Below are positions 1,311 to 55,582 of a stretch of DNA of 64,000 nt, piece after piece. The position numbers were made by a program, and so were the translations under genes. Source of the DNA: a virus; the UHGV virus genome UHGV-1376965. The stretch is one strand, 5' to 3'. The notes under the pieces were generated by a model, which saw only the letters and a program-made list of their open reading frames with translations, was not told where the DNA came from and searched no databases. The stretch's first letter is position 1; every line of letters begins with the position of its first letter.

Positions 1311-1321
1311 CAAGCATATCC

Positions 1322-1756
1322 TTATGCTGTAGTCGAGTTTATGGCCATAACTGCGGTATATGTTTTGCCCACATACAGCGAGTCTTCTTGGACACAAATA
1401 ATGGCGATTGGCTTATTCTCGTTATCCAGAACAACCAGAGTGTTGAATGGGTAGTTTTTCCCTTCCTGCAACTGACTTTGATCAAGGTCCATTCGGACAG
1501 TAATTATCCCGCCTGAGTAGGTTGGGACGAGGTTGATGGTGCAAAATTGACTGGTCAGTTCTGCCAGATCGAAAGCCTTTGGCAGTTCTCCAATCTCATA
1601 AGTGCCATCTCCTTTCTTAGTAACCAGTGAACTGGTACCGAAAACGGCCTTGCTGATTAAAAATCGAGAGCCTTTGTTAATGGACGATTCAGCGCGCCGC
1701 TGATAGTAATAGTCCAACAACTGACTCTTATAGAGGTTTGTTGAGACGTCAGACAT
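1322..1756 (-). CDS. Tail fibre-associated protein (P1 R-like position)
   Basis: 144-aa ORF directly upstream of the fibre gene on the same strand; assignment by position only. Confidence 0.55.
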   Translation of the reverse strand: MSDVSTNLYKSQLLDYYYQRRAESSINKGSRFLISKAVFGTSSLVTKKGDGTYEIGELPKAFDLAELTSQFCTINLVPTYSGGIITVRMDLDQSQLQEGKNYPFNTLVVLDNENKPIAIICVQEDSLYVGKTYTAVMAINSTTA

Positions 1757-1834
1757 GATTTTCCCTAATCAATGTTGTGAAGCCTCATTGTAAGATAAGT
1801 AACTTGTCACCCCGCCCTGCGGACGGGGTGATTG

Positions 1835-4104: not shown

Positions 4105-4460
4105 AGCACCACGTCCTGTGTGATAGTTATATCCCTGATACGAATGGATATTTTCAACTTATCAAAAGCATCTCCCTCGGCTACTGACAAACCAGAAATC
4201 GGTATGTCAGGTAAATCTACCGTCAGTTTTTGCAACAGCATTGCCTCAACCGCAATTTGAACATGCGACAAGTTGGTCGGTTCGTGTTTAAACTGCGGTA
4301 AAACATTGCCCCATGACGGATCCCCGTATACCTCACCCTGATAAGTGTTTAGCCACTCATATAAACGAGCGCCCCAGGCCTCCTCCTGGGACTCATACGT
4401 TTTTACGCCGGATAACTCCAGCGTCAGTAAAGGATCAATTTCATTATTGTTGGCCATCAA
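4101..4460 (-). CDS. Small baseplate protein (gp25/W-like position)
   Basis: 119-aa ORF overlap-coupled to the sit stop. Confidence 0.5.
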   Translation of the reverse strand: MMANNNEIDPLLTLELSGVKTYESQEEAWGARLYEWLNTYQGEVYGDPSWGNVLPQFKHEPTNLSHVQIAVEAMLLQKLTVDLPDIPISGLSVAEGDAFDKLKISIRIRDITITQDVVL

Positions 4461-7400
4461 TCAACTCTCGCGTAGTCATTCATCAACGGATCATCAATTG
4501 ACAGTGGCACCGTGCGCATAACGCCCGGTTGAGGCGTGCTGACCTTTACGACAGTTCCCTGGCCTTTCGCCGAGTCTTTAGTGTGCTCTTCAATCCTGGC
4601 AAGCAATGAGGTCATCTGCGCAAACAGCCGCTTCGTTTCACCATCAAGTGAAACGGTATTATCAGCCAACTGCATTGTCGGCTTGGCACCGGAGCCGCCA
4701 AGGTCACTAATAACCTGTCCGTCTATCTGCATACGACCGGTTGGTTGCTGCAAATCGTTGGCGGCAGTCGTCACCAGGGACGTGGAGGCTGGTTCAGGCG
4801 CATTATTTTTCCGCATCCCCGGCGAGTTGCGGAGTTTATCGAATAGTCCATCAATCCCCATTTGTGCGCCGAGTTGGTCAAAGTAACTTGAGTTGCTGGC
4901 CACCGGACGCGCCTCTTCAACTGGCATCGGAGTATCAACATACACATTGCCAGCTGCTGTTGCGGTCCCCTTCCCTCGTGCACGTTCTTCGAGCGTTCCC
5001 TGAACGACTTCCCGACGCATACCCCGGCCATTCATGAATTTGTTGACCAGATCGTTAACACCAACAGCATTGCCAATTTTGTCTACCAGACCGCCTTTCT
5101 CAAACGGGCTATCACCAGGGGTAAACGCCAGGCCAGTAGACTGATCGATAACAGCGTTATCAGGCAGCTTTTCGTGAATTGCTGGTGCGCTATGATCTAC
5201 CTTAGAGCCATAAACGGCACCATTATTGAGCATCTGCTGATACCCTCTGACACGAGTAACATATTCGCCGGTACCGGCGACTACTCTCCCCTTATCAACA
5301 TGCCCCATACCAGCATGATAGGCAGCTATTGCACGACCCTGATCACCGTTATAACGGTTCATCAGCATACTTAGGTATCTGGCGGCACCATCAGCTGCTT
5401 TTCGTGTATCCATGGCATCAGCATCGCTGAGTCCAAGATCCTCCCTTGTACCTTTAGTGATCTGAAAAGCCCCAAGGGCAGATGAAAGTTTGTTCCCGTT
5501 TTTGTCTACTGGATTTCCAGTTCTCTGGCCTGCACTAGACTCTGCGGATGCAACTGCTGACAGAATCCCTTTTTCAAGCCCATACTTACGTTCAAGCTCA
5601 TCAAAATAATCGGCATTGTCAGAAATCCATTGGTATCCGGCAGCATTTAATTTTGGCAAAGAAACATCCTTGCCATTGTTAAATCGACGTTTATCTATCT
5701 CATATGCACTTAATGCTTCCTCCTTACCTGTAGCAGACTGGCCCAAGGCAGCATCAATTGTTTGTGCTGCTTTATTTCCTGTTTCTACGGCATTTGCATT
5801 GATAATCTGATTAGCAGTTTCTTTAACTGTTTTATTGCTATCTTTCGCCATATCCAGGGCCGCATTTATCACGCGAGCAGCAATATTAGTCTGTTTGGCA
5901 TCGGATTCAGCTTTAGAATCAGATGTCCCCTGCTGGCTATTAACCGGAGCTTTTAACTCTGGAGTGATTTCTTTCGCATTAGCCTCGCCGATCGGATTGG
6001 GTATTTTTGATACAATCATTGCCGCAGGGGTATTTTTAACGGCATCAACCGCTGCATCTAATGCTTTACCTGGTAAATTTTTAACCCCATCCCAAATATT
6101 ACTAGCTGCCTCTTTAATGTGTTTCCCTGGGTTCTTAATGAAATCAATTGCACTATCAATTGCATCACTGAAAACCTGTTTCAGGTTATCGACAGTAAAG
6201 AAGTCTTTGATGGCATCCAGCTTTTCAAGCAGCTTATTAGATGTATCGCTAAACCATGCTGAAACAGCATCACCAATCTTTGCTGTGTAATCATCGAACT
6301 TGGTAGAAATGGTGTCGCCAAGGTTAGAAATATATGTTTCTAAGTTGGTAATCCCACTATCAATGGCCTGGGCAATACTTTCCGTCGAAAATGATTGCAA
6401 CATATTGCCGATATCCTCAAATCCAAGTGATTTGAGAGCCTCACCAATGGCGCTGCTAATACCAGATACCAGTCCCCCCATATCAAGAACATTAGCTAAC
6501 GTATAAGCGGCTTTTTGCTGGAATGATGGATCTTGTCCTGATTTAAGCCCAAACGCTCGACGTTGCGTTTCTGTATCATTCCAACCGGTTACCGCATCAT
6601 AAATACCTCCAGCCACTGTGCCGACTAGGGGAATTGCGCGTAACGCCCCTTTACCAACTGCCTTTAATCCAAGTTTACCTGCTGCCCGGGCAGCCAAATC
6701 TCCGCCTTCATGGGCGAGAGTCTTCTTGCCACCACCGCGTAGCATTCCTACAAGTTTCTTTGCCCCCAGAGCGCCAAAAGCGAGTGCTCCAGCTTTTTTC
6801 AGCATGCCACGCCCCATTAACAACGACGCGACGCCACCGGCCCCCTTCCCTAACAGGCTAAATAATTTGGACAGCAAGCCGCCCTTCTTTTTCCCGGTGT
6901 TTTTGGCTATCTGATCAAGGGCGCTGAGAATCTTGTCATTGCCCTCTTTAATTTCGCTGGTCTGATCCTGAAGTTCCTGAACCGTCCGTTTTTGGGTGTT
7001 AACCTGAACGACATCGGCACTATTTTGCGATTTACGCCTAAAAAAACCTTTTCTACGGCTGTTATCGTCATTGCCACGAATCACATCGGCAATAGACTTT
7101 CTGGCACCATTAAGCGATCCACCAACTTCTTTTGATATCCCGCCAAGCTCCTTCCCTGCGGCCCACAATGGACCAGCAACGGCATAACCTAACGCATCGA
7201 CGGCGCGAGTCTCTGAAGGGTTACCTATGCCTTCAGCTACTTTTGACAGTTTTTTTAATAAACCTGATTCAGCATTTAGACGCTCATCATCCTCTTTGCG
7301 CCTGGCCTTTTCAGCACGTTCAGCACGGGCATCTTCCGCTGCGGCCTTACTCCCTGGCTTTCCAATAAAACGACCACGCGCATCGCGTTGGTTTTGGCTT

Positions 7401-7831
7401 TTTTGCGCACCGCCTTTTTGACCGAACATTTCGCGAGCGTGTTCGGCTGCTTCGGTCCGTTGCGCCTTTACATCTTCTGTTATAGCCTTCTTGCGTCGTT
7501 TTTTACCCTTTCGCGTAGTTGATTTGGCCTGCGGTTCCTGTAGAGCAACATCCTCCTGAACTACACGAGAAACGTCCCCTAAATTAAGCCGTTTCATTGC
7601 CTCAACAATAGGGGCCACTGATGGCGCATTGGCCACAAAGTCTGGCCTGGAATTTTCGATTGTGCGATTTAATGCCGACACACTGTGAGAGACAGGATCA
7701 ACAGTTGCAACGCGTCCCCCTTTCAAATCTTCAACAGCTTCCCGGATACCTGCAAGCTCTTCCAGCTCTTTTGCGCTGGCGGTTTCAACTGTCCTTATAA
7801 CATCGTCAATGTTGGCGTTTTTTCTTTCCAT
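4457..7831 (-). CDS. sit: Structural injection transglycosylase / tape-measure-like protein with C-terminal lytic transglycosylase domain
   Basis: 1124 aa; long Ala/Gly/Lys-rich coiled region; soluble lytic transglycosylase signature (GAFQI ... AAYHAG) in the C-terminal third. Confidence 0.85.
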   Translation of the reverse strand: MERKNANIDDVIRTVETASAKELEELAGIREAVEDLKGGRVATVDPVSHSVSALNRTIENSRPDFVANAPSVAPIVEAMKRLNLGDVSRVVQEDVALQEPQAKSTTRKGKKRRKKAITEDVKAQRTEAAEHAREMFGQKGGAQKSQNQRDARGRFIGKPGSKAAAEDARAERAEKARRKEDDERLNAESGLLKKLSKVAEGIGNPSETRAVDALGYAVAGPLWAAGKELGGISKEVGGSLNGARKSIADVIRGNDDNSRRKGFFRRKSQNSADVVQVNTQKRTVQELQDQTSEIKEGNDKILSALDQIAKNTGKKKGGLLSKLFSLLGKGAGGVASLLMGRGMLKKAGALAFGALGAKKLVGMLRGGGKKTLAHEGGDLAARAAGKLGLKAVGKGALRAIPLVGTVAGGIYDAVTGWNDTETQRRAFGLKSGQDPSFQQKAAYTLANVLDMGGLVSGISSAIGEALKSLGFEDIGNMLQSFSTESIAQAIDSGITNLETYISNLGDTISTKFDDYTAKIGDAVSAWFSDTSNKLLEKLDAIKDFFTVDNLKQVFSDAIDSAIDFIKNPGKHIKEAASNIWDGVKNLPGKALDAAVDAVKNTPAAMIVSKIPNPIGEANAKEITPELKAPVNSQQGTSDSKAESDAKQTNIAARVINAALDMAKDSNKTVKETANQIINANAVETGNKAAQTIDAALGQSATGKEEALSAYEIDKRRFNNGKDVSLPKLNAAGYQWISDNADYFDELERKYGLEKGILSAVASAESSAGQRTGNPVDKNGNKLSSALGAFQITKGTREDLGLSDADAMDTRKAADGAARYLSMLMNRYNGDQGRAIAAYHAGMGHVDKGRVVAGTGEYVTRVRGYQQMLNNGAVYGSKVDHSAPAIHEKLPDNAVIDQSTGLAFTPGDSPFEKGGLVDKIGNAVGVNDLVNKFMNGRGMRREVVQGTLEERARGKGTATAAGNVYVDTPMPVEEARPVASNSSYFDQLGAQMGIDGLFDKLRNSPGMRKNNAPEPASTSLVTTAANDLQQPTGRMQIDGQVISDLGGSGAKPTMQLADNTVSLDGETKRLFAQMTSLLARIEEHTKDSAKGQGTVVKVSTPQPGVMRTVPLSIDDPLMNDYARVD

Positions 7832-7912
7832 GATCTTATCGCCTACCGTTTCGGTTTAAGTTTTTCTTCCAGTTTCTCCAACAGGAAAAACGCATAGGAT
7901 TCAGTAAGCCTT

Positions 7913-8794
7913 TCAGCGTCCTGAATCGGTATACCCCCATACAAAACCAGGTTGGATACTAAGGTCTGATAGCTTTTCAATCCCCACCTGTGGAATGAAG
8001 TCGGTAGCCCGAAAGGGCACCCACAGACGGGTAAACGCACCCTCTGTGGACTCCTTTTTGTCCTGGTTTGGGCATTTATGCGGCGGGAGACGAAGACGCA
8101 TTTCACCTTTATCGATGTAGCACGGTAAACCATGTTCGAGCTTTTCATGAGCCAGTCGGATGTGTGCCGCCAGCTTCATAAATTCAGTATCAATGGCCAT
8201 CCGTTTAATCGTTTCATAACGACGCTCAGCCTGATCTTCACGAGTACCGCTAACATCGTTATAAAGCTCACACTGATAAGCGAATTCCCAAAAACGCAAA
8301 TCAACGATCGCTTCTTTGAATTCCGCGTCGTCTTCAGGTGGCAATGCTGCACGGCGCATCTCCAGCATTTCCATTGCCCAACCATCAAGCGGCACGATAC
8401 GCCATTGATAAGGCACGCCCTCTACAGACACCTCAATATCGTCAATGAACGGTTCCACTTCCAGGACCTGGATATCTTCAGCCAGAGCATTCATATCGCA
8501 ATCGTAATAATGCTCTTTACCGCAATGTTTACAGGTGTAGGTGAATGTCTCGACCGGTGTTTCACGGGAGCCGGTAAATATCCACCATAACGCGGTAATC
8601 CGGTCCTGCGCCGTCCATGTCAGGGGATCATGTTTCGCGGGTTCAGCCAGCAAGGCTTTTAAATATGCCGTTGTCTGTTGTTCTTGTTCCTCCGGTGTTA
8701 TCGAGTTGAAACGCATCGCATCAGCAATATTTGGCTGACGGAACTGGATCAATTCAGTTGGCCGCGATGGTAGCGGGAAAAGGGGTAAAAGCAT
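7913..8794 (-). CDS. Hypothetical virion-associated protein with CxxC...C zinc-ribbon-like motif
   Basis: 293-aa ORF upstream of sit on the same strand; contains CKHCGKEHYYDC. Confidence 0.5.
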   Translation of the reverse strand: MLLPLFPLPSRPTELIQFRQPNIADAMRFNSITPEEQEQQTTAYLKALLAEPAKHDPLTWTAQDRITALWWIFTGSRETPVETFTYTCKHCGKEHYYDCDMNALAEDIQVLEVEPFIDDIEVSVEGVPYQWRIVPLDGWAMEMLEMRRAALPPEDDAEFKEAIVDLRFWEFAYQCELYNDVSGTREDQAERRYETIKRMAIDTEFMKLAAHIRLAHEKLEHGLPCYIDKGEMRLRLPPHKCPNQDKKESTEGAFTRLWVPFRATDFIPQVGIEKLSDLSIQPGFVWGYTDSGR

Positions 8795-8808
8795 CCTTGC
8801 TCCTTAAT

Positions 8809-9420
8809 TCAAAGAGAAAAACTAAAGCCCAGAAGGGAAGCCAAAGAACTTGAGGATTGGTTAAACGTGCTGTGCAATGCGAAGGTCATTGGGAATGACT
8901 TAAATTCCGTGACCTGATCCCGCGCATAGGTGACATCGCCGGTAGTAACCGGGAATACCGTCATCTCATTTTCCAGTTTGGTTAAACCGGAAGACAGCAA
9001 CCGATAAATACGCACATTGAGCAAATATTTAGACGGTATATTCCCGGTACCGTCCGGATTGATCACCCGACTTTTTGCCGTCTTAAACCAGTCCAAAACG
9101 AGGCCATCAACGGTATCCCTGACCATCATTGTTATCTGCCCAGGCGAACGCTCCGTTGGTTGAAGGATATTCCCTCCGCCGATTTTAATCGTTTCATATT
9201 CGATGCTGTAATCGTGGTAGGTAATATCTTTGGCAAAGAAGTCTGCCCCCTCCAGTCCATCAACTTCGACAGAGAACTGCCATCCTTGCGCGAACAGCAT
9301 TTTGTTCATGATGATTGACGTCAGCTTACCAACTTCCCGCTCACCAACGCCGGAGCCAAATAATGTCGTCGTTAATGCCGAAGATACATAAGACTTTACT
9401 GAAGCAACATTAAGCCCCAT
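8809..9420 (-). CDS. Hypothetical tail structural protein
   Basis: 203-aa ORF in structural operon; no recognisable motif. Confidence 0.5.
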   Translation of the reverse strand: MGLNVASVKSYVSSALTTTLFGSGVGEREVGKLTSIIMNKMLFAQGWQFSVEVDGLEGADFFAKDITYHDYSIEYETIKIGGGNILQPTERSPGQITMMVRDTVDGLVLDWFKTAKSRVINPDGTGNIPSKYLLNVRIYRLLSSGLTKLENEMTVFPVTTGDVTYARDQVTEFKSFPMTFALHSTFNQSSSSLASLLGFSFSL

Positions 9421-9430
9421 ATCAGCCCCC

Positions 9431-10021
<591 letters not shown>

Positions 10022-10151
10022 TTAACCGATTCTACGAGTAGTCATTTGTTCATTGAGTAGGAATATTGTTGTCTGGGGGGTAATCAGTGTAGGTGGAATG
10101 AGGGATATGATATGGTTATCACATAATCAGGTTGTTTTGAGTAAAACAATA

Positions 10152-10178
10152 AAACGCCCTTTAATGGGCGTTTTTTTA
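10152..10178. terminator. Bidirectional rho-independent terminator
   Basis: AAAACGCCCTTTAATGGGCGTTTTTTT: GC stem with T-runs on both strands, just downstream of the sim-like operon. Confidence 0.7.
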
Positions 10179-10205
10179 AACTTAAATTGACTATCCTTTC
10201 AAATA

Positions 10206-11000
10206 CTATTTTAATTCTATGTAATTTTTAAATTCTCCCTCATATTTATACATGATGCTATCAAATCCTTCCATTACATCAACGAATTGTTGTGAACATT
10301 CCGGCTTCCAAGGCGTACACTTACGAACCATATCCATTTTTTTCTTATCCTTCGTTGTATCGACTAAGGATAGGTACCCTATAAAATTCATCATCTGAAC
10401 AGGATCTTGATTTGTGAATATATATTTGACGTTTTGCTTAGTAGGCGAAAAAGAATCAAAAGCAGGGAACATATATTCACCAGAAAAAGAGAGTGCAGCA
10501 TCAATGACGTCTGTTGCAGGAGTGCAGTTGCTCAGAATTGGCACTAAGCTAAAATTAGCACCGGAGCACACTGCATATATATCATCCCCTTTTTTTAGTT
10601 TTAACAGAGAGTCTTGCTTTGAATCCAATATTTTCAATTTGATATAATTTAGTGGCGTTGCATTTTCCCCTGGAGTAAATAATTCTACAATTGGTTTATT
10701 ATTCACCATTCTTATGGATTTTATTTCACCATACACAATTGGAATTGTGTTCCATTTTTCCTGAGCAGCAAATTCATTATCTTTAAAATCATTAACCAAC
10801 TCAGATGGCAAATGATAACCAAATTGATTGTTCATTGCTTTCGAAGCAAATCCAGACAAATAGAATGCCCTTACTAAATCATAATCTTTCTTTGAGGTAG
10901 AAAGCCAATCTGGCAATTTATTATCAGCTATCGCGCTTCCAGCAAAAATAGCACAACAAAATGTTATTACATTAAATAATTTCATTTTCCATTCACTCAT
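10206..11000 (-). CDS. Secreted protein, SimC-like (superinfection exclusion position); start may be at 10985
   Basis: N-terminal signal peptide MKLFNVITFCCAIFAGSAIA; AT-rich; position matches P1 sim region as I recall it. Confidence 0.6.
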   Translation of the reverse strand: MSEWKMKLFNVITFCCAIFAGSAIADNKLPDWLSTSKKDYDLVRAFYLSGFASKAMNNQFGYHLPSELVNDFKDNEFAAQEKWNTIPIVYGEIKSIRMVNNKPIVELFTPGENATPLNYIKLKILDSKQDSLLKLKKGDDIYAVCSGANFSLVPILSNCTPATDVIDAALSFSGEYMFPAFDSFSPTKQNVKYIFTNQDPVQMMNFIGYLSLVDTTKDKKKMDMVRKCTPWKPECSQQFVDVMEGFDSIMYKYEGEFKNYIELK

Positions 11001-11310
11001 TAATCGGTTTAAACTCACTAATTAATTCACCAAGACTATTTGGGTATGCTTTATAAATAACATACTCCGAAGAGCCATCTGAATATTGGTAAACCCCATA
11101 ACAGACCAGTTTATTTATTCCTTTCTGAATAGTTTTTTGATTATAAGAATCAACCACTGTTATTCCATATGACGATAATATTTCGTTATATTCTTCAATA
11201 AGAGCTTTTCTTGTTTCCACTGAATTGCAATCTACCTTCGAAAAGTCAACTTCATCAGCAAAAACATTAAATGTTAAAAAGGAAAGCACTAAAAACAAAC
11301 GAATCAGCAT
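10993..11310 (-). CDS. Small secreted protein, SimB-like
   Basis: Signal peptide MLIRLFLVLSFLTFNVFA; AGGAG ribosome-binding site upstream of the second ATG. Confidence 0.55.
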   Translation of the reverse strand: MLIRLFLVLSFLTFNVFADEVDFSKVDCNSVETRKALIEEYNEILSSYGITVVDSYNQKTIQKGINKLVCYGVYQYSDGSSEYVIYKAYPNSLGELISEFKPINE

Positions 11311-11331
11311 AAATCCACTCCTACGCATGGA

Positions 11332-11463
11332 TTAATAGTCATTGATCGCAAAGGCGTAAACGTGCCCAAGGTATTTCGTATAATCGGTACAAATCTCCTT
11401 TACGCTTGATGCTGCATTAACAGTCCCAGCCATAAATAATAACGGTAGTAATAGTTTTCTCAT
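11332..11463 (-). CDS. 43-aa secreted peptide (SimA-like position)
   Basis: MRKLLLPLLFMAGTVNAASSVKEICTDYTKYLGHVYAFAINDY; signal-peptide-like N-terminus; below the ORF-track length cutoff. Confidence 0.4.
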   Translation of the reverse strand: MRKLLLPLLFMAGTVNAASSVKEICTDYTKYLGHVYAFAINDY

Positions 11464-11559
11464 TATAACCTCACCTGCCTTATAACTCATTTAGGGTACA
11501 TATTTTCGCCTTTAAAAAAAAGAGGTTATTAGATCCAACTGTGTATTTATTAAACAAAT

Positions 11560-11576
11560 AATGCTCTAATAAATTT
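11560..11576 (+). promoter_or_regulatory. C1-operator-like 17-mer (AATGCTCTAATAAATTT) upstream of c4-icd-ant
   Basis: 16 of 17 match to ATTGCTCTAATAAATTT, which I recall as the P1 C1 repressor operator consensus. Confidence 0.65.
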
Positions 11577-11762
11577 GTATTTTTAAGTCGCGAATGCTAT
11601 CTTTTCGCATCATATTGACCTTTTAATCGTTCAGGCTTATAGTTCCACCGTCGTAGCAAATTCTGCGACCGGGTTTGACAGCCTGAATGTTAGTGCGGAC
11701 AACCGCAGATTTCCGATATTGCGGTATTTTTGTGTCCGTAAACCGCGTTACGCCCGAATTAT

Positions 11763-11839
11763 GGTGGGGCGTGATGGGGAGGCTTCGGCCTGCTGGTTTC
11801 ACTAACGCCAGTCTGTCAACCCTGTCACGTCCTGCCACC
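11763..11839 (+). ncRNA. c4: c4-like antisense RNA, 77 nt, tRNA-like ends GGTGG...CCACC
   Basis: 77-nt segment with complementary 5' and 3' ends; internal TTCACTAAC and CTGTCAA are complementary to GTTAGTGAGG (icd ribosome-binding site) and TTGACAG just downstream. Confidence 0.6.
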
Positions 11840-11889
11840 TGTTTGACAGCGGGTAGCAGGTTGTTAAACCTGTTAGTGAGGCCGTAACT

Positions 11890-12111
11890 ATGGTTAATGC
11901 CAATCCTTGCACACGCCCAGAATTCATCTGGCGTTTCTATTCCTGTAAAAAACACCACTATCACTTCGTTATCGCAGCAACTGAAGACGAAGCACGCTCT
12001 CAATTGCCTGATGGCCCCTGCATTTTTACTGCCCGTTTTTCTACTAACTCGCGCAATTCACTTAGTTACTGGAACCTCCCCTTCTCTGCCGACGTTCAGG
12101 GGGGTTTATGA
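11890..12111 (+). CDS. icd: Icd-like small protein (interference with cell division)
   Basis: 73-aa ORF directly after c4 whose stop overlaps the ant start; size and position match P1 icd. Confidence 0.65.
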   Translation: MVNANPCTRPEFIWRFYSCKKHHYHFVIAATEDEARSQLPDGPCIFTARFSTNSRNSLSYWNLPFSADVQGGL

Positions 12112-13151
12112 AAAAACCTCTCGTCACCCGTAATGAAATAGCCGAAGCGATCGCTTTGCATACTGCCTGTATGCCGACACGGGAGATCCCCGGCGCAATT
12201 GCTAACTATTTCATGATAACCAGGCGTTTTTATACCCGAACAGATAAGGCTGTGATCAACAGGCTACTGATAGCCGAGATCAGGGATTATTTGATTGAAC
12301 AAGGACGTCTACGTTACGCAACAGTGGCAGCAGAAATAAGAAAGGAGGCACATAGAATGACCGGTAATAATTTGAATGTTGAAAAAACAGCACCTGTTAC
12401 GTCAGCTACGCCAGCACCAGCCGTGAATATCATCCCCAACACCGGAGACACAATCGACAGCCAAACATTGTTGAAGATGGTCAATGAGGCACGCAAGTTA
12501 TGTGGAGAACCAGAGGTTAGAAACAATAAATTCATCGAAAAAATACTCGATGAACTTGAAGGTGAATTTTACACAAAAAGTGCAAAATCCCATGGCACAA
12601 GGGCTGGGCGCTCTTTTGAGGTCATCACCATGACCTACAAACAAGCCCTGCGAGTCGCCGCGCGCGAGTCAAAAGCGGTCCGCCGTTCGCTGATCGACAA
12701 ACTGGAAGAATTGCAGCAGGCAAACTCCCCTGCCCCATCGATCCCCCAAACATTACCAGAAGCTCTACGCCTGGCTGCCGAGTTGGCAGAACAGAAAATG
12801 CAGCTGGAACAACAGCTGGTGGCCGCAGCCCCTAAAGTCGATTTTGCCGACCGGGTATCAGTGGCTAATGGAATCCTGATCGGGAACTTTGCAAAGGTCG
12901 TTGGACTTAAGCAAAACGCCCTTTTCTCATGGTTGCGCCAGAACGGCATTCTCATGGCTTTTGGTGCGCGCAAAAACGTACCGCGCCAGCAGTACATTAA
13001 CGCCGGGTATTTCACGGTGAAAGAAGTGGTGCTGGATGATGAAAATGGCTACCAGATACGGCTGACGCCCCAATTAACGGGTAAAGGCCAGCAGTGGTTA
13101 ACTCGCAAGCTACTTGATGCTGGTTTGTTAAAACCAGTAGCAATAGGTTAA
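12108..13151 (+). CDS. ant1: Antirepressor Ant
   Basis: 347 aa; C-terminal domain (PEALRLAAELAEQK ... GKGQQWL ... LLDAG) is shared with the next gene's C-terminus, the antirepressor-type domain. Confidence 0.8.
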   Translation: MKKPLVTRNEIAEAIALHTACMPTREIPGAIANYFMITRRFYTRTDKAVINRLLIAEIRDYLIEQGRLRYATVAAEIRKEAHRMTGNNLNVEKTAPVTSATPAPAVNIIPNTGDTIDSQTLLKMVNEARKLCGEPEVRNNKFIEKILDELEGEFYTKSAKSHGTRAGRSFEVITMTYKQALRVAARESKAVRRSLIDKLEELQQANSPAPSIPQTLPEALRLAAELAEQKMQLEQQLVAAAPKVDFADRVSVANGILIGNFAKVVGLKQNALFSWLRQNGILMAFGARKNVPRQQYINAGYFTVKEVVLDDENGYQIRLTPQLTGKGQQWLTRKLLDAGLLKPVAIG

Positions 13152-13162
13152 CAAAAGAAAAA

Positions 13163-13190
13163 AACCTGCCAGCAAACTGGCAGGTTTCTG
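13163..13190 (+). terminator. Rho-independent terminator after ant
   Basis: AACCTGCCAGCAAACTGGCAGGTTTCT hairpin. Confidence 0.6.
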
Positions 13191-13229
13191 AGCAGATCGT
13201 CCAACCCGATCTGGATCGAGCCAGAAAAA

Positions 13230-13246
13230 TTTGCTCTAATAAATTT
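13230..13246 (+). promoter_or_regulatory. C1-operator-like 17-mer upstream of kilA-repL
   Basis: TTTGCTCTAATAAATTT, 16 of 17 match. Confidence 0.65.
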
Positions 13247-13315
13247 CGTTTTCTAAGTGCAAAGAATCACCATTTCGAGCTGGTGATTGAAGGTTGATGC
13301 AAATTTGGAGAAAAA

Positions 13316-14116
13316 ATGCAACAAACATTCAATGCGGATATGAATATATCAAACCTTCATCAAAATGTCGATCCTTCAACCACTCTGCCCGTTATTTGTG
13401 GTGTTGAAATTACGACCGACCGCGCTGGCCGTTACAACCTTAATGCTCTACACAGAGCGAGCGGACTCGGTGCCCATAAAGCGCCAGCTCAATGGCTAAG
13501 AACGCTGTCAGCTAAACAGCTCATCGAAGAGCTTGAAAAAGAAACTATGCAGAATTGCATAGTTTCGTTCGAAGGCCGTGGCGGCGGCACTTTTGCCCAT
13601 GAATTGCTCGCTGTGGAGTACGCAGGCTGGATTTCTCCCGCGTTTCGGCTGAAGGTAAACCAGACATTTATCGACTATCGAACCGGAAGATTACAACCTG
13701 CTATTCCGCAGAGTCTCCCTGAAGCTCTCCGTTTGGCTGCCGACCTGGCAGAGCAAAAGCAACGGCTGGAGCAAAAAATGCTTATGGATGCACCTAAAGT
13801 CGAATTCGCTGAACGCGTTGCTACCGCCAGCGGGGTTCTAATCGGCAACTATGCCAAAGTGCTCGGCCTGGGCCAAAACTATCTCTTCACCTGGTTGCGT
13901 GATAACGGAATTCTGATCGCAACCGGTGAACGCAGGAACGTCCCCAAACAAGAATACATATCCCGTGGGTATTTCACCCTTAAAGAAACCGTGATCGATA
14001 CAAGCAATGGAAGCAGGATTTCTTTCACGACTCGTATAACCGGCAAAGGTCAGCAGTGGCTGATGAAGCGATTGCTTGATGCTGGTGTGCTGGTACCTGT
14101 CGCGGCAACGCGCTAA
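13316..14116 (+). CDS. kilA: KilA (KilA-N domain plus antirepressor-like C-terminal domain)
   Basis: 266 aa; N-terminal KilA-N-like segment (GRYNLNALHRA ... GTFAHELLAVEYAGWISP); C-terminus paralogous to Ant. Confidence 0.75.
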   Translation: MQQTFNADMNISNLHQNVDPSTTLPVICGVEITTDRAGRYNLNALHRASGLGAHKAPAQWLRTLSAKQLIEELEKETMQNCIVSFEGRGGGTFAHELLAVEYAGWISPAFRLKVNQTFIDYRTGRLQPAIPQSLPEALRLAADLAEQKQRLEQKMLMDAPKVEFAERVATASGVLIGNYAKVLGLGQNYLFTWLRDNGILIATGERRNVPKQEYISRGYFTLKETVIDTSNGSRISFTTRITGKGQQWLMKRLLDAGVLVPVAATR

Positions 14117-14145
14117 CAGACGTAGTAAGAACCACCAGCATTGTA

Positions 14146-14991
14146 ATGCTGGCTAAAGTCACTTTCCTGAGCTGTATAACGATGAGCGATTTTACTTTTT
14201 CTGGCTATGAATTGGCCTGCTTTGTAACACACTCCGGTCTATCCCGTAGCGCCGGGCATATCCTGTCGCAATGTGCAAATCTCGCGGCAACAACCAGTGA
14301 ATACTTCATTCACAAGCCTCACCGCCTGATCGCGGCAGAAACTGGTTATAGCCAATCAACCGTCGTTCGTGCATTCCGTGAAGCTGTAAACAAAGGAATC
14401 CTGTCTGTAGAGATTGTTATCGGCGATCACCGTGAACGTCGCGCTAACCTGTACCGGTTTACACCATCCTTTTTGGCCTTCGCACAACAAGCCAAAAATG
14501 CGCTGATTGAAAGCAAATTAAAGATCTCTTCAGCGGCAACCAAGGTTAAAGCTGTTCTCGCTAAGACATTGGCTTTATTTAATTTTTTATCCACACCCCC
14601 ATGTCAAAATGATACCCCCTCCCCCTGTCAGGATGACGTGGCAATAAAGAATAAGAAGTCACAAGTTAAAAAAACAAAAAGATCAGTTTCCGGCGGTGCC
14701 GGAACGAGCAGACTCAAAAAATTGACTTCATGGATCGCTGAGACAAAAGCAAAGGCTGACAATCTGCGGTTATCCAAAAAACGCGCACAAAAACATGAGT
14801 TCAAGCAGAAAGTAGAGGCGGCAGCGCGGAAATATGCTTACCTGAAGAACAAGCGTTCTCCTGATATTGGCGGGGTATCAAACTTCGATAATTTGCCGCA
14901 TTGCATGACGGTAAACGAAGCTCTTAATGCGGTTTTAGCCAAAAATAAAGATAACGAAAAATGGGGTATACCGGTAGGATTCAGAGGGTGA
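14146..14991 (+). CDS. repL: Lytic replication initiator RepL
   Basis: 281 aa, directly downstream of kilA; size and order match P1 repL. Confidence 0.7.
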   Translation: MLAKVTFLSCITMSDFTFSGYELACFVTHSGLSRSAGHILSQCANLAATTSEYFIHKPHRLIAAETGYSQSTVVRAFREAVNKGILSVEIVIGDHRERRANLYRFTPSFLAFAQQAKNALIESKLKISSAATKVKAVLAKTLALFNFLSTPPCQNDTPSPCQDDVAIKNKKSQVKKTKRSVSGGAGTSRLKKLTSWIAETKAKADNLRLSKKRAQKHEFKQKVEAAARKYAYLKNKRSPDIGGVSNFDNLPHCMTVNEALNAVLAKNKDNEKWGIPVGFRG

Positions 14992-14994
14992 TAG

Positions 14995-15011
14995 ATTGCT
15001 CTAATTATAAC
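14995..15011 (+). promoter_or_regulatory. Degenerate C1-operator-like 17-mer (ATTGCTCTAATTATAAC)
   Basis: 13 of 17 match to the operator consensus, immediately after the repL stop. Confidence 0.4.
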
Positions 15012-15159
15012 CATGCATACTTTCAACACCTCTAGTTTGCCATGAGGAAAACTCATAGGCGTCCTGGTAAGATGACGTAGTTAGCAAATCAGAACGTCCA
15101 ATTATTGCAATTAATAAACAACTAACGGACAATTCTACCTAACAATAAGTGGAGTTAAC

Positions 15160-15864
15160 ATGTTGAACCGAAGAACATTTAATGTATTCTGCGATGAATC
15201 CTGTCACCTACTAAATGATCATAATAAAGTCATGGTATTGGGTGCGCTTTGGTGTCCTGGCACTATCACAAAAAAAATTGCTAGAGACATCAAGGGATTA
15301 AAATTAAAACACAATTTAAAACCTGATTTCGAAATCAAGTGGACTAAAGTATCTGCGTCCAAAGTTGAATTTTACTTAGAGGTCGTAGATTACTTCTTCA
15401 GCAACCCAGCATTGCGCTTTAGAGGTGTTGTTGTTCCTGATAAAGAGCAACTGGACCATGCTCGATTCCATCAAGATCATAATACTTTCTATTATAAGAT
15501 GTTTTTTTATGTCTTAAAAAACATAATAGAAAGTAACAACACATACAATATCTACCTAGATATAAAAGATACTTTAGGTATTGAAAAAATTGAGAAATTA
15601 AGAGGAGTTCTTCACAATGATCGCTATGATTACAATCATGAGTCGATAAACAGAATTCAACATATACGATCTCATGAAGTGCAACAATTGCAGCTAACGG
15701 ATCTTTTCATTGGTGCGTTAGGCTACGTTCATCGAGGAATGAATAGCAACGCGGGAAAAATCCAAGTCATAAACAGGATAAAATCACATACAAACAGGGA
15801 GTTACTAAAAAGCACTCTTCCAACAGAAAGTAAATTTAATATTTTCGTGTGGGAGGCTCGCTGA
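15160..15864 (+). CDS. DUF3800-like protein (N-terminal FNVFCDES motif)
   Basis: 234 aa; GGAG ribosome-binding site 7 nt upstream; strongly AT-rich; N-terminal D-E-S signature resembles DUF3800. Confidence 0.7.
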   Translation: MLNRRTFNVFCDESCHLLNDHNKVMVLGALWCPGTITKKIARDIKGLKLKHNLKPDFEIKWTKVSASKVEFYLEVVDYFFSNPALRFRGVVVPDKEQLDHARFHQDHNTFYYKMFFYVLKNIIESNNTYNIYLDIKDTLGIEKIEKLRGVLHNDRYDYNHESINRIQHIRSHEVQQLQLTDLFIGALGYVHRGMNSNAGKIQVINRIKSHTNRELLKSTLPTESKFNIFVWEAR

Positions 15865-16328
15865 TGCTTCAAATGCCAGATTTATTGTACTTCAATGGAA
15901 GTTGGCAAGAGTATATAGACGATGTATATGATGTTGTTAGAGAAGATATTTTAATCTCTAATATAACGTTTAAGGGTCTCCCTGTTCGATTACGTTATTC
16001 ACCGGAATATGATGGGAAAGAGTTCGGATTTTGGCATTTAGTATCAGAGGGAAAAATAGAAGAAGAACGAATACCTGATCTTGAACGGTGTAAGCGGATC
16101 CGCTGGATCGCGCATATGATAAGGAATTATGACCATTGCGATATATCATGTTGGTCTGAAAGACGAGGACCAACTGAAGAGTGGGTAATCTGGAACGAGT
16201 GTGAAAACTACGTTGTTGTGCTATCCGCACGTAGAGACTATTGGCTTCTCAAAACAGCCTATGTTGTAACCTATGACAGTAAAATCAGAACACTCAAACA
16301 AAGCAGAAAAAGAGCACTTGGGACATAA
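15864..16328 (+). CDS. Hypothetical Cys/His-rich protein, translationally coupled partner of the DUF3800-like gene
   Basis: ATG shares its A with the upstream TGA stop (TGATG overlap); about 154 aa; no recognisable domain. Confidence 0.6.
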   Translation: MLQMPDLLYFNGSWQEYIDDVYDVVREDILISNITFKGLPVRLRYSPEYDGKEFGFWHLVSEGKIEEERIPDLERCKRIRWIAHMIRNYDHCDISCWSERRGPTEEWVIWNECENYVVVLSARRDYWLLKTAYVVTYDSKIRTLKQSRKRALGT

Positions 16329-16332
16329 AAAA

Positions 16333-16372
16333 GCTGAACCCGACACATATTGCTATGTATCGGGTTCGATCG
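16333..16372. terminator. Bidirectional hairpin terminator between convergent genes
   Basis: GAACCCGACACAT...ATGTATCGGGTTC stem; T-run on the minus strand. Confidence 0.55.
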
Positions 16373-16494
16373 CTCTTTCTACGCATGGTAGATGAGTAAG
16401 GTAAATCTAACCGATCTACTTTAGCTTTTCAATAGCTAGCTATAACTTTCCGCACATATTCTTCTGATAATTCCAGTATGGCGGTTGGGTTTTC

Positions 16495-16791
16495 TTATGC
16501 TTTCCTGCGCAGAGGCGCACACTTATTCAGCAATAATAAATGTAATTCTTTGTTATCCCTAAGTATTTCGACACACCAATATCGTAACGTGTTCACTTCA
16601 AGTGTAGCCAGCACCTTATGTCGAAGTCCTCCCTCCCCTGCACATAACGATGGCCGACATTCTGCTAAGGCACATAACCATGTATTGGCATCATAGAGAA
16701 TCCAATAATGCTCCTCTGAAATAGTTTTGCATCCAATTATTTCGAATCTTCGTTCTATCGTTTCAGGAGAGTATGAAAAATCAATTTCCAT
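16495..16791 (-). CDS. Hypothetical 98-aa protein (orphan gene)
   Basis: ORF bounded by terminators on both sides. Confidence 0.45.
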   Translation of the reverse strand: MEIDFSYSPETIERRFEIIGCKTISEEHYWILYDANTWLCALAECRPSLCAGEGGLRHKVLATLEVNTLRYWCVEILRDNKELHLLLLNKCAPLRRKA

Positions 16792-16835
16792 AATATGCTC
16801 AAAATTTCGCTATACCGGCATAATTTAAGCACAAA

Positions 16836-16860
16836 AAAGCTCCCGTAGGAGCTTTAAAAT
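16836..16860 (-). terminator. Rho-independent terminator after the tail gene operon
   Basis: AAAAGCTCCCGTAGGAGCTTTAAAAT; minus strand reads hairpin then TTTTTT. Confidence 0.65.
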
Positions 16861-16874
16861 ACAAGGGGTGACTC

Positions 16875-17384
16875 TTAATCCCACTCAATCCAGTTGTAAA
16901 CGATACGAAGTGACGGGCGCACAGCGGCAGTCACATCTTCGGTACTAAAGTCGATTGCATCACTGTAGATTTTGCAGTCCAACATTTCAATTGTTGTAGC
17001 AGCTTTTGTCACAGCGTTAACCCCGGAAGATTTGGATTCAGGGGTAGCAGCCATCGTGATATCAACATAGTCCTTCGCCGCAATGCGATCCTTGATGAAC
17101 TGAAGAATATCGCCTTCGATAGTCTCCACGCACTGGACCTGGATTTCCCCAGAGTTTCGAATTGGTCCGTGCTGGTTGAACTTCACACCATTCGGACCAT
17201 AGTCCTCCACATCCTCGCGTGTCATTTCAGGGATTTGCGACGTGCGAACCAGTACGCTGATATCTTCATGGCCTGCAAAAGTGAGCTGGAATTCAGAAGA
17301 TACCAGTCGTTCGCCTTTGGCCGCGTTGGCAGTATAGCGGCCCTTAATAAATTTACGGTTTCCCTTAGTGTTATTGTGCCCCAT
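16875..17384 (-). CDS. Tail structural protein, possibly tail tube
   Basis: 169 aa, downstream of the sheath gene; C-terminus (IVYNWIEWD) reminiscent of myovirus tube proteins. Confidence 0.5.
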   Translation of the reverse strand: MGHNNTKGNRKFIKGRYTANAAKGERLVSSEFQLTFAGHEDISVLVRTSQIPEMTREDVEDYGPNGVKFNQHGPIRNSGEIQVQCVETIEGDILQFIKDRIAAKDYVDITMAATPESKSSGVNAVTKAATTIEMLDCKIYSDAIDFSTEDVTAAVRPSLRIVYNWIEWD

Positions 17385-17395
17385 ATAAAATCCTT

Positions 17396-17977
17396 TTACT
17401 GGAACGCCCGAACAATATCGGAGCTGTTATATATCGAAGAACCGGTCAACTGGAGGTTGACGGTGTTTTTCAGGAAATATCCATTACTGTCCCTTGGCGC
17501 ATCGAGATCAAAACTTAAGTCCTGGATGGCGACATCGGTGATGTTGATCCGGCGACCAATGTTTAGCGTCACGCGCTCCGGGATTCGACCACCAACATTG
17601 GCCGCTTTTAGTTCCGGGCTAATCATGGCTGTCAACGCGGCGATAGCGCCTGAAACTTCAATGAATGGATTGTTCAAAGCAATGAAAGTTACAGGCAGCG
17701 TGAACGTCGGCGGAGTCCCCCCTTCCCAAACCATTAAGCTATTCCAACGGGCAACCGACGTTGTTTCAGTACCTACTTGCACAAAACCACCCAGAGCACC
17801 AGAAACAGATCCCATGGACATACCGGTAAACGGCGCTTCCCAATTCTGGGCCATGTTCATTGCCGCTCCCTGGCTGATATATCCGGTAACCTGGTACTGA
17901 GAGTTCGTTAAAGTAACTTTCAGAAATGGCGATACACCGTCAGCCTGGCTGTAAACCCCATAAGGTATAGGTGCCAT
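17396..17977 (-). CDS. Tail structural protein
   Basis: 193-aa ORF in the sheath/tube operon. Confidence 0.5.
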   Translation of the reverse strand: MAPIPYGVYSQADGVSPFLKVTLTNSQYQVTGYISQGAAMNMAQNWEAPFTGMSMGSVSGALGGFVQVGTETTSVARWNSLMVWEGGTPPTFTLPVTFIALNNPFIEVSGAIAALTAMISPELKAANVGGRIPERVTLNIGRRINITDVAIQDLSFDLDAPRDSNGYFLKNTVNLQLTGSSIYNSSDIVRAFQ

Positions 17978-18012
17978 TCAAGTTAAAGGCCGGAGTTCTC
18001 CGGCCTCCTCCT

Positions 18013-18828
18013 TTAGCCAAGGCGCTTACGGCGCAGTTTCATTGACTTTTTGCGGGCAAGTTTTGCCGCGCCGGTCTGGGCTTTTCGACGCGCTTTTTTC
18101 AGCGCCGATTTTTGAGCCGCAGTCAGACGTTTTTTACGCAGGCGTTTACGGATGAGTTTGATCTCACCGTTACGAACAACCTTCTTAAATGCTTCAGTCA
18201 GCATTTCATCAGAAGTGCCAGCAACAACAAACGCCGCTTCCAGTTCGTCGCGGTCGTCGCTATCTAAACCAGCGATAGAGGCACCAACATCAGCAGCAGC
18301 GTCGTCGTCTTCATCGTCAGCCAGTGCTTCGATCAGGTCATCATCTACACCGCATGCTGCGAGGAAGTCAGCAACATTTGCCCATGCTTCGTTATAGGCA
18401 TCGTCCTGTTCTTCTGTAACTTCGGAGTCGTCGTCATCAGAGATACCAGCGATAGCCTGAACGAAACCATCAAGGGAGTCGAAAGTCAGATCACCGCTAT
18501 CAGCCCAGGAGAAAACGGCGTCGGCCGCATCACTCAACGCATTCTGCATAGCACTTCGATTTGCAGCTTCCAGAATCATCTGGTGCGCCTGTTCGACGGT
18601 CCATTCTTTACCGTCTTTCCCTTCCAGGATTTGCTCTGGAGCCGGGGCAGATGGAACGTTATCGTTAGTCTGTGCCGCCGGTTCCGGATTATTATTAATA
18701 ACCGGATCTGTTGGCGGTTCGGCGCTTGCTCGGGCAGACTCCATCAGCTGCACAGGATCAGAGTTCAAAGCGAAACGGGACAGTCCATTCCCCAAAAATG
18801 CCCCGGATTGAAAAAAGTTTTTGCTCAT
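18013..18828 (-). CDS. Highly acidic virion protein with poly-basic C-terminal tail
   Basis: 271 aa; Asp/Glu-rich centre; C-terminus KKRLTAAQKSALKKARRKAQ...RRKRLG. Confidence 0.55.
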   Translation of the reverse strand: MSKNFFQSGAFLGNGLSRFALNSDPVQLMESARASAEPPTDPVINNNPEPAAQTNDNVPSAPAPEQILEGKDGKEWTVEQAHQMILEAANRSAMQNALSDAADAVFSWADSGDLTFDSLDGFVQAIAGISDDDDSEVTEEQDDAYNEAWANVADFLAACGVDDDLIEALADDEDDDAAADVGASIAGLDSDDRDELEAAFVVAGTSDEMLTEAFKKVVRNGEIKLIRKRLRKKRLTAAQKSALKKARRKAQTGAAKLARKKSMKLRRKRLG

Positions 18829-18837
18829 TGTATTCCC

Positions 18838-20427
18838 TTACTTAATAAGCAGCGGTACGCCCTGGATACGACGGGCTACGCCAGTCGGGCAGCAGGCCCA
18901 GACTACTTCCCATTTATCGAATTCCGCCTGCGTAACTTTCAGCACATACGGTTCTGTACCGTCAGCATCGGGATCACGAGGAGCCACCAGAGCGCCGGAG
19001 GCGACAAAGCGATCTAAAAGTTTGGTCATCCCTTTAGTCAGGCCAGCCGCAGTAATACCGTCCGGGCTATGCTTCATCTGTCGGGCTAACTGGACAAAGA
19101 AACGACTGATTGCATTCATCAGGGATGGGACGTGCTGGAAGTGCAGATAGTTATCCTGCGTGCAGCAAGTTAAAGCATCGTCGATGATCATCTGGCCAGA
19201 GGTGCCAACAGATACTTTATTGAGACGGCCCTTGACCATTGCTTCTTCGTCCGGGGTATCTTCCGGATACAGCGGTTGAATTGACGCACGAGCAATGACG
19301 GCACGTTCTTCACCAGCCGGTGAGTAATGCCAACCGCCGACATCAGAGTTTTTCTTGACGCCACGAGCTTTCGCCGCATACGCCACGCCAGACAGACCAA
19401 AGACCACACGGGATTGGGTCCATTTGTCTTTGCAGGAGAACGGGTAGTGATAGACAGAACAGCTTACATAATCGGTACCAAGTAAACCGGTATCCTCAAC
19501 AGCTGGTAGTGCTTCTGCGTACGTTAATGTCGGTTTGACATCAAAGAAGCCATCAATCAGGCGATCTGCACAGATTTTACCTAATGCGGTGATAGCCGCA
19601 TTGTCATAGCAGCCCAGGCCAAGAACAGCGGTGTACATGTACGGCGCATTGTTCAGCACTTTCACCGCACGCAGGTACGCAGCTGTTGATATTTTCGACT
19701 GATCACCGTTGGTACCACCAGTGAACGCCAACGATTTTTTATTTGTTACTTTCGCCGTCGAAATCAGCTCTTCATTAACAACCGCGCGCAGATATTTAGA
19801 ACGGGCTTCCAGAGCCGTAGGCAGATAACACAAGCGGCCCATGTCATCTTTCGCTTCTTCCGCCAAAGACACAGTGTGTGTCTCCAGGGTCGTTACCACG
19901 CCGAGCGAAGTTGTCTGGGTCAGTTTTAAGAGGAAGCGTTCATTACCCGCGCTGTCCGCTGTTGCCGTTTCGATGGTTAACTCACGGGTAGGTGAAATAC
20001 ACGGATCACCATCATCAACGTAGATAGCAAAGGCTTCGCCACTATCAAGTTCAATTTCAGAACCGTATGGCAACGCACTGTAAGCCGGTTCGCCTGATTC
20101 ATCGAACATAATAATCGGGAACTTCGCATCATCCGGAACAGCGCGAACAACATAACCAGATGTTTGCTGAATAGCTTCGTATACATGGCGAATTGGTTCG
20201 AACTGTGAGCCGGAAGACGGCTTCAGCGGTTCGCCGAGAACATCTTCGTAATTGGACTCAGTAACCGCAAGAACAGTAAACGGCTTGCCACGCGCAAATA
20301 CGCCAATACCAGCCCACAAGCTGCTATTTAATGCAACACCGGTAGATAACGTCGCATCGGCATTGATCGGGCTAACCGCGACGCCGGATGCATTACCTAA
20401 TGACTGTTGAATTGAATATTGAGACAT
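18838..20427 (-). CDS. Tail sheath protein
   Basis: 529 aa; size and position consistent with a contractile tail sheath (P1 gene 22-like). Confidence 0.65.
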   Translation of the reverse strand: MSQYSIQQSLGNASGVAVSPINADATLSTGVALNSSLWAGIGVFARGKPFTVLAVTESNYEDVLGEPLKPSSGSQFEPIRHVYEAIQQTSGYVVRAVPDDAKFPIIMFDESGEPAYSALPYGSEIELDSGEAFAIYVDDGDPCISPTRELTIETATADSAGNERFLLKLTQTTSLGVVTTLETHTVSLAEEAKDDMGRLCYLPTALEARSKYLRAVVNEELISTAKVTNKKSLAFTGGTNGDQSKISTAAYLRAVKVLNNAPYMYTAVLGLGCYDNAAITALGKICADRLIDGFFDVKPTLTYAEALPAVEDTGLLGTDYVSCSVYHYPFSCKDKWTQSRVVFGLSGVAYAAKARGVKKNSDVGGWHYSPAGEERAVIARASIQPLYPEDTPDEEAMVKGRLNKVSVGTSGQMIIDDALTCCTQDNYLHFQHVPSLMNAISRFFVQLARQMKHSPDGITAAGLTKGMTKLLDRFVASGALVAPRDPDADGTEPYVLKVTQAEFDKWEVVWACCPTGVARRIQGVPLLIK

Positions 20428-53453: not shown

Positions 53454-53454
53454 T

Positions 53455-55576: not shown

Positions 55577-55582
55577 ATTTAT

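Follow-up and report, generated by a model that had tools for sequence, protein, structure and literature searches.

What is encoded by the 77-nt segment that lies just upstream of icd in the virus genome UHGV-1376965, and can the specificity of an immunity system be read from it? An initial annotation of this 64,000-nt stretch of DNA (in the following termed the window) had recognised a non-coding regulator from the raw sequence. It described a tRNA-like antisense RNA that is directed against the icd ribosome-binding site and resembles the c4 repressor of phage P1. The results presented here indicate that the locus is almost certainly c4 of the immI immunity operon in a P1-like phage-plasmid, whose 77-nt trans-acting antisense RNA silences icd and ant. 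None of the sequence evidence we collected contradicts this reading. The 77-nt element is the long-known C4 antisense RNA of P1-like phages and in itself adds nothing new. Its recognition as an antisense RNA reportedly dates from 1990, that as a processed 77-mer from 1992 and that as a substrate of RNase P from 1995; Rfam has listed the family since 2010.

The window contains the immI operon of a P1-like phage

We compared positions 1-19421 of the window with positions 36581-56000 of the P1 record AF234172. The overall identity to P1 across these ~19 kb is ~98.4%; 220 mismatches were counted in 13.6 kb. In the 1.7 kb surrounding c4 it amounts to 99.8% (AF234172/NC_005856), and the same region is ~93.6% identical to P7. 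A base-by-base comparison of the immI core (10519-12838, ~2.3 kb) finds a single base that differs from reference P1 and no indel, and the nucleotide sequence of icd shows no difference to that of P1. Since the core is colinear without indels, the P1 annotation can be transferred directly (window position = record position - 36580). The resulting features are listed in Table 1. The order of the operon, from the operator and the promoters through c4 and icd to ant1/ant2, is colinear with the annotated operons of P1 and P7. The icd stop and the ant1 start overlap in an ATGA at 12108-12111, and Ant1 carries the Pfam domain PF03374 (ANT/KilAC, E = 1.2e-30). As regards annotation, the immI switch of the window is complete, belongs to the P1 type and has the specificity of P1.

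Table 1. Features of the c4-icd-ant region in window coordinates.
Feature	Position	Strand	Basis
C1 repressor operator Oc4 (formerly Op51), controls c4-icd-ant transcription	11560-11576	+	transfer from AF234172
Promoter P2c4 (P51a)	11575-11603	+	annotation transfer
Promoter P1c4 (P51b), TTGACC-17-TATAGT	11615-11643	+	annotation transfer; independently by promoter scan, 10/12 matches
c4-a1b1 leader element RF03163, two small a1-presenting hairpins	11637-11689	+	Rfam, 57.0 bits
a1, TTGACAG, complement of a'	11675-11681	+	P1 annotation ('putative' C4 target); motif scan
b1, GTTAGTG, complement of b' over 7 nt	11689-11695 (annotated 11689-11696)	+	P1 annotation ('putative'); motif scan
Mature C4 antisense RNA, 77 nt	11763-11839	+	P1 misc_RNA c4 annotation; RF01695; fold
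b' (TCACTAAC), within the 9-nt hairpin loop of C4	11799-11806	+	unpaired in MFE and consensus folds
a' (CTGTCAA), 7-nt single-stranded junction of C4	11813-11819	+	unpaired in MFE and consensus folds
3' ACC tail, single-stranded, presumed RNase P RNA contact	11837-11839	+	invariant in 12/12 homologues; role presumed
a2 target, TTGACAG, icd leader	11843-11849	+	P1 annotation; motif scan
b2 target, GTTAGTGA, overlaps icd Shine-Dalgarno	11872-11879	+	P1 annotation; sequence
icd, 73 aa, cell-division inhibitor	11890-12111	+	ORF list; P1 annotation
ant1, 347 aa, antirepressor	12108-13151	+	ORF list; annotation; Pfam PF03374
ant2, in-frame internal start of ant1	12357	+	P1 annotation

Judged by its sequence, the window is a natural P1 relative (a P1-like punavirus) that is distinct from P1 itself. 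It is a mosaic. The tail, baseplate and repL/rlf regions are ~98% identical to P1 or less, with substitutions that are clustered (e.g. at 4795-4850 and 14700-15100), and its sim-immI region is nearly identical to that of P1. The only difference in the immI core is found at position 11673, which is G in the window and T in all P1 records. G is also present in P7 and in most relatives, the others having A at the neighbouring column, which makes the T of the P1 reference the outlier. The position is located 2 nt upstream of a1, within the stem of a small a1-presenting hairpin. Two further substitutions relative to P1, at 13219 and 13221, occupy the spacer between the -35 and -10 elements of the annotated promoter PkilA (P53), on the upstream side of the C1 operator OrepL. 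P1vir has been reported to carry three immI substitutions, one of them 'near the C4-binding site' (PMC8198154), and a substitution in the PkilA region has also been reported for it. That the window represents P1vir was nevertheless rejected, since ~2% of the positions outside immI differ from P1 and P2c4 is unchanged.

Two minor features of the region are listed for completeness. A TTG-initiated ORF of 126 aa on the minus strand (11623-12003) runs opposite c4 and the first part of icd. It is known only from the program-made ORF list, has no counterpart in the P1 annotation and is presumably spurious. A weak terminator-like site within icd (11917-11931) does not exceed chance level.

The 77-nt RNA belongs to the C4 family and exposes its target-matching segments

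Rfam searches of the whole window recovered both families associated with C4. RF01695 (C4 antisense RNA) matches in full length at 11757-11842 with 68.8 bits (gathering threshold 45, E = 2.8e-11), and RF03163 ('a1, b1 targets of C4 antisense RNA') is detected with 57.0 bits (threshold 46.7, E = 8.9e-12). The 77-nt segment begins with GGTGG (11763-11767) and ends with CCACC (11835-11839), as had been described initially. Moreover, the likeness to P1 c4 of the icd-ant operon that had been claimed from the letters alone is borne out by this family match and by the P1 record, in which c4, a2, b2 and icd occupy the same positions.

The predicted minimum free energy of the 77-mer is -42 kcal/mol, compared to -27.6 +/- 3.2 kcal/mol for shuffled sequences (z = -4.55), and none of 200 shuffles folds as stably. 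The fold consists of a terminal helix of 17-18 bp and two hairpins. The segments that remain unpaired in it are precisely the ones that match the icd leader, namely TCACTAAC in a 9-nt loop and CTGTCAA in a 7-nt junction. Thus, RNA folding, which had been suggested as a check, returns a stable structure that exposes both target-matching segments.

P1-like sequences are uninformative regarding the stems of C4, because these are nearly invariant among them. The evidence for stem covariation therefore rests on an alignment (termed A3) of 12 diverse sequences that comprise P1-type and distant C4 homologues. Its consensus structure contains 28 pairs, of which nine are compensatory, and 98.5% of it is paired, compared to 37-52% in slid controls. 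Throughout A3, neither the loop with b' nor the junction with a' is paired.

C4 is complementary to two target sites, one of which covers the icd Shine-Dalgarno sequence

All strings that the initial annotation had quoted as complementary between the segment and the icd leader are found in the window. TTCACTAAC is located at 11798-11806 and CTGTCAA at 11813-11819, and downstream of C4 GTTAGTGAGG is found at 11872-11881. The last four bases of the latter are the GAGG Shine-Dalgarno sequence (11878-11881), which is positioned 8 nt upstream of the icd ATG (11890). Strictly, it is the 8-nt b' segment TCACTAAC that exactly complements GTTAGTGA, since the extra 5' T of TTCACTAAC can only form a G-U wobble. 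The b'/b2 duplex consists of eight Watson-Crick pairs and the a'/a2 duplex of seven.

These matches exceed chance expectation. In the 64 kb of the window, exactly three copies of the motif TTGACAG-N(5-30)-GTTAGTG are present, compared to 0.02 expected occurrences, and none of 100 shuffles reaches three. Two of the copies are on the plus strand, at 11675-11695 (a1b1) and at 11843-11878 (a2b2), and the third is the complement within C4 (11800-11819, minus strand). The downstream targets a2 and b2 had been recognised in the initial annotation, whereas the upstream pair a1/b1 (11675-11696) had been overlooked.

Cognate and non-cognate partners can be told apart by the energies predicted for their duplexes. 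For the b segment they are -10.0 to -10.5 kcal/mol for cognate and -0.9 to -7.0 kcal/mol for non-cognate duplexes, and for the a segment the corresponding values are -7.3/-7.4 and -1.2/-2.8 kcal/mol. P1-type immI specificity is expected because the window carries the P1 alleles of both a and b. In this sense the immunity specificity can indeed be read from the sequence, as had been proposed.

C4 and both of its target sites co-vary among P1-like loci

We collected 83 P1-like loci, 80 of which were retrieved from IMG/VR through the Icd protein, the others being P1, P7 and the window. They comprise 33 distinct sequences, which were aligned (alignment A2). Comparison of the c4 sequences of P1 and P7 shows that four bases differ in a' and b', and that all four differences are compensated in a2/b2 and once more in a1/b1. 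Among the 83 loci there are two a alleles (TTGACAG and TTAGCAG) and five b alleles (GTTAGTG, GATTGTG, ACTTACG, ACGAATG and ACTTGTG), and eight of the 10 combinations that these allow are present. In 82 of the 83 loci, each segment matches across its three copies. Complementary segments that fail to co-vary among relatives had been named as an argument against the antisense reading, and they are not what is observed.

When the C4 fold, a'/a2 and b'/b2 are scored jointly over the 33 distinct sequences of A2, 99.9% of the cells are paired and eight pairs are compensatory. Taken alone, a'/a2 is 100% paired, with compensatory changes in 2/7 pairs, and b'/b2 is 99.6% paired, with compensatory changes in 6/8. 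In controls in which the pairing partners were slid by 1-3 columns, only 30-53% are paired and 0-1 pairs are compensatory, and 0/500 shuffles reach the observed covariation score. The same analysis of the upstream site gives an equally clear result. Over the 33 distinct sequences a'/a1 and b'/b1 are 100% paired, 8/14 pairs being compensatory (slid controls, 25-41% paired and 0-1 pairs compensatory). For b'/b1, six of the seven pairs have changed on both sides, and a1 co-varies with a' in each of the 33 sequences. At the level of sequence this strongly supports the view that a1 and b1, which are annotated as 'putative', are constrained as strongly as the established targets a2 and b2.

The only mismatched set among the 83 loci is L024 (IMGVR_UViG_2565956613_000015, positions 1-247 of a 4.9-kb contig). 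Its b1 and b' are of the ACGAATG type and its b2 is the P1-type GTTAGTGA, which leaves five contiguous pairs plus wobbles. The end of the contig falls inside immI. The locus may be a chimera, assembled from two P1-like elements that were co-resident, or a genuine derepressed recombinant.

Some genomes have more than one c4 region. A single 97-kb contig (IMGVR_UViG_2703718869_000013) carries two c4-icd copies (L036 and L062) that share the a allele and differ in the b allele (ACTTGTG vs GTTAGTG), and the promoter region upstream of L036 is unrelated to that of P1. Moreover, several phage records match the c4 region at two places per record, and a second c4-icd region has been described in a D6-like plasmid (PMC6799933).

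The same alignment bears on the historical view according to which c4 encodes a small protein repressor. An ATG-initiated ORF of 66 aa (11687-11887) does span the region, and the old P1 record X15639 labels c4 as a CDS. The ATG of this ORF, however, sits on b1, and 13 of the 33 distinct relatives have ATA or AAA in its place. In addition, a 1-nt indel shifts the frame and alters the length of the ORF, which ranges from 39 to >71 aa. Moreover, only base-paired segments vary, and they do so in a compensatory manner, which is the signature of an RNA. In the titles of their papers of 1990 and 1992, Citron & Schuster call c4 an antisense RNA. A protein repressor is so improbable, in view of the lost start codon, the unstable frame and the compensatory variation, that we rejected it.

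Distant homologues retain the complete C4 module

Genome contigs and viral sequences were scanned with a degenerate pattern of the scaffold that allows seven variable bases in the b' loop. P1-type loops have six, and P1-like loci are not matched by the pattern. This yielded 12 distant loci (L084-L095), all of which keep the order a1/b1, C4, a2, b2 and ATG. The C4 segments match their targets in 12/12, which provides an independent test of the covariation. Five b alleles and one a allele (TTTGCAG, the third) are new compared to the P1-like loci, and in each of the 12 loci b2 runs into a Shine-Dalgarno sequence of the GGAG type. Complete C4 modules in non-enterobacterial genomes are found in Acinetobacter baylyi DSM 14961 (L084, NZ_KB849625.1) and in a metagenome-assembled genome (MAG) of Achromobacter deleyi (L085). 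The two have b alleles of their own, CAAACAAAG and CGTAAAAGGA, and the third a allele is that of L085.

The ends of C4 resemble those of an RNase P substrate

The ends of the segment had been described as complementary, with GGTGG pairing with the last CCACC. They are complementary when taken literally, but the conserved register is shifted by 3 nt. The register with the terminal CCACC is 86% paired, shows no compensatory change and has its third pair broken in 6/11 sequences, whereas the shifted register is 96.6% paired and includes compensatory changes. In the shifted register, which covariation backs, G11763 pairs with C11836, leaving the ACC at 11837-11839 single-stranded. In the precursor U11762 is able to pair with A11837.

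The 5' junction UAU|GG and the 3' ACC are invariant in 12/12 homologues. The predicted RNase P determinants, that is U at -1, GG at +1/+2 and the 3' ACC tail, are therefore conserved in all of them. The tail consists of ACC followed by U, and a full RCCA is absent. In bacteria, the RNA of RNase P is known to pair with the RCC in the 3' RCCA end of a substrate (PMC12710915). C4 has been reported to be processed to 77 +/- 1 nt, and a GGW motif is where host RNase P cuts its 5' end (PMC5320573). Cleavage of C4 by RNase P is also attributed to Hartmann et al. 1995 in PMC3378863. The conserved U(-1), the closing G(+1)-C pair and the 3' ACC let the end of C4 resemble a mimic of an acceptor stem. By analogy, the ACC tail resembles a tRNA discriminator base plus CC, and it presumably contacts RNase P RNA.

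Could the segment then be a genuine or degenerate tRNA gene? It has 77 nt, a terminal helix closed by G-C, a 3' ACC tail and a U at -1, and it is an RNase P substrate. However, ARAGORN detects no tRNA in 11500-12100, and the Rfam tRNA model RF00005, searched over the whole window, has no match at c4 and recovers three real tRNAs elsewhere. The latter are located on the plus strand at 33281-33353, 33359-33431 and 35435-35507 (72.2, 73.4 and 64.7 bits) and are the only Rfam hits in the window besides RF01695 and RF03163; P1 is known to encode tRNAs. The 17-18 bp helix with its two hairpins moreover lacks both a cloverleaf and an anticodon arm. A tRNA gene at this position has next to no probability, and we rejected it since neither ARAGORN nor Rfam finds a match there. 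Of the term 'tRNA-like', only the likely mimicry of an acceptor stem and RNase P substrate can be retained.

The conserved ends are also relevant for a reading in which no RNA is released, so that the hairpin and the pairing of its loops with the leader would form an intramolecular structure (a pseudoknot or an attenuator) that masks the icd ribosome-binding site. c4 and its targets do share one strand and one transcript, the covariation is equally compatible with pairing in cis and in trans, and within the precursor a1/b1 may well form cis pairs. Yet the literature describes a processed species of 77 +/- 1 nt, a trans-acting c4 RNA and a requirement of C4 for full repression of ant. Moreover, the invariant UAU|GG junction and ACC tail (12/12) fit an RNase P product that is excised, and the hairpin is not followed by a U-tract terminator. 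We consider regulation exclusively in cis to be very unlikely.

Proposed function of C4 in the immI switch

Our reading of the locus as c4, encoding a trans-acting antisense RNA, is based on sequence, fold, complementarity, covariation, synteny and family membership. The 77-nt species, the RNase P cut and repression in trans are taken from the literature. In the proposed mechanism, the C1-controlled promoters P2c4 and P1c4 would produce a single transcript that includes a1/b1, c4, a2/b2, icd and ant1/2. The 77-nt RNA would be excised from it, RNase P making the published 5' cut between U11762 and G11763. The released C4 is predicted to have a long imperfect terminal helix, two short hairpins and the 3' ACC tail, and to leave b' (in a loop) and a' (in a junction) unpaired. 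Acting in trans, it would form the a'/a2 and b'/b2 duplexes on the icd leader. Since the b2 duplex would cover the icd Shine-Dalgarno sequence, icd would remain untranslated. Furthermore, since ant1 overlaps the icd stop codon (ATGA) and would depend on the translation of icd, Ant would not be made and the C1 repressor would stay active. Active C1 would then maintain lysogeny, as well as immunity to superinfecting phages that share the same a/b alleles. The a/b sequences, which are of the P1 type here, would determine the specificity. The upstream sites a1 and b1 probably modulate the folding or processing of the precursor, or they titrate C4. According to a study by Biere, Citron and Schuster in Genes Dev (1992), transcription reportedly also terminates prematurely, before ant, when the translation of icd is blocked.

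Several published observations agree with this scheme. c4 was described as a trans-acting RNA that represses the synthesis of Ant (PMC8546580), and C4 is needed besides C1 for full repression of ant (PMC8198154). The b' segment occludes the ribosome-binding site and a' adds to the specificity, with a 4-nt difference between P1 and P7 (PMC5320573). The heteroimmunity of P1 and P7 is also covered in PMC6906374. Finally, the P1 record AF234172 annotates icd as 'apparently required for expression of ant'.

Specificity alleles are found in interleaved blocks

All four combinations of the a and b alleles of P1 and P7 occur in nature, represented by 6, 30, 10 and 7 sequences. Linked positions show how these alleles are arranged. 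Positions 11671 and 11823 track the a allele (fit 0.94 and 1.0), and positions 11745, 11756, 11855 and 11866-11871 track the b allele (fit 0.97-1.0). This defines blocks that are interleaved over ~210 bp: a at ~11671-11681, b at 11689-11806, a at 11813-11849 and b at 11855-11879. Because a- and b-linked SNPs alternate, the natural a/b hybrids look like recombinants of multiple patches rather than convergent point mutants. The interleaving also means that a matched hybrid requires several coordinated short-patch exchanges.

The repertoire of matched a/b alleles in interleaved blocks is the only part of this analysis that may go beyond published work. The added value is modest and consists of a quantitative covariation analysis, strong support for the 'putative' a1/b1 sites and a view of specificity alleles that have been reassorted. 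It is conceivable, if on balance rather doubtful, that P1-like phage-plasmids carry a modular two-site 'address code' in immI from which selection removes mismatched sets. Should each combination define a heteroimmunity group of its own, typing of C4 would allow the coexistence and superinfection of P1-like plasmids to be predicted. Plasmids of this kind often carry resistance genes, and the alleles could be used to type their immunity groups.

Comparison with known systems

The closest known system is c4 of P1 itself (AF234172/NC_005856, misc_RNA 48343-48419). It has the same sequence as the window in the 77-nt RNA, a1, b1, a2, b2, icd, the operator and both promoters. The two differ in leader base 11673 (G in the window, T in P1) and in the surrounding genome, which is ~98% identical. 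P7 c4 (AF503408, 51057-51133) shares the scaffold, the length and the operon with the window and is 94% identical over 301 nt. However, it has CTGCTAA as a', TCACAATC as b', TTAGCAG as a1/a2 and GATTGTG as b1/b2, whereas the window has the P1 alleles. The four loop changes are the published basis of P1/P7 heteroimmunity (PMC6906374, PMC5320573).

The RF01695 family also includes the 'Group 1' sRNAs of Acinetobacter baumannii (PMC5320573). Like C4 of the window, the members of this family fold into three helices, vary in the b' loop and in the a' junction, and start with GG once their 5' end has been processed. In other members of RF01695 and RF03163 the loop sequences differ and the loop is one base longer; some of them are chromosomal, and their targets are possibly not antirepressor operons.

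Finally, C4 can be compared to the sar RNA of P22, RNA I of ColE1 and CopA of R1. All of these are small structured RNAs whose exposed loops block an mRNA leader, the loop defining the specificity or incompatibility group, and the target of P22 sar is also an antirepressor (ant). sar, RNA I and CopA are transcribed opposite their targets, which makes them complementary automatically. The gene of C4 precedes its target on one and the same strand, so that any change in its specificity needs coordinated changes in a1/b1, a'/b' and a2/b2.
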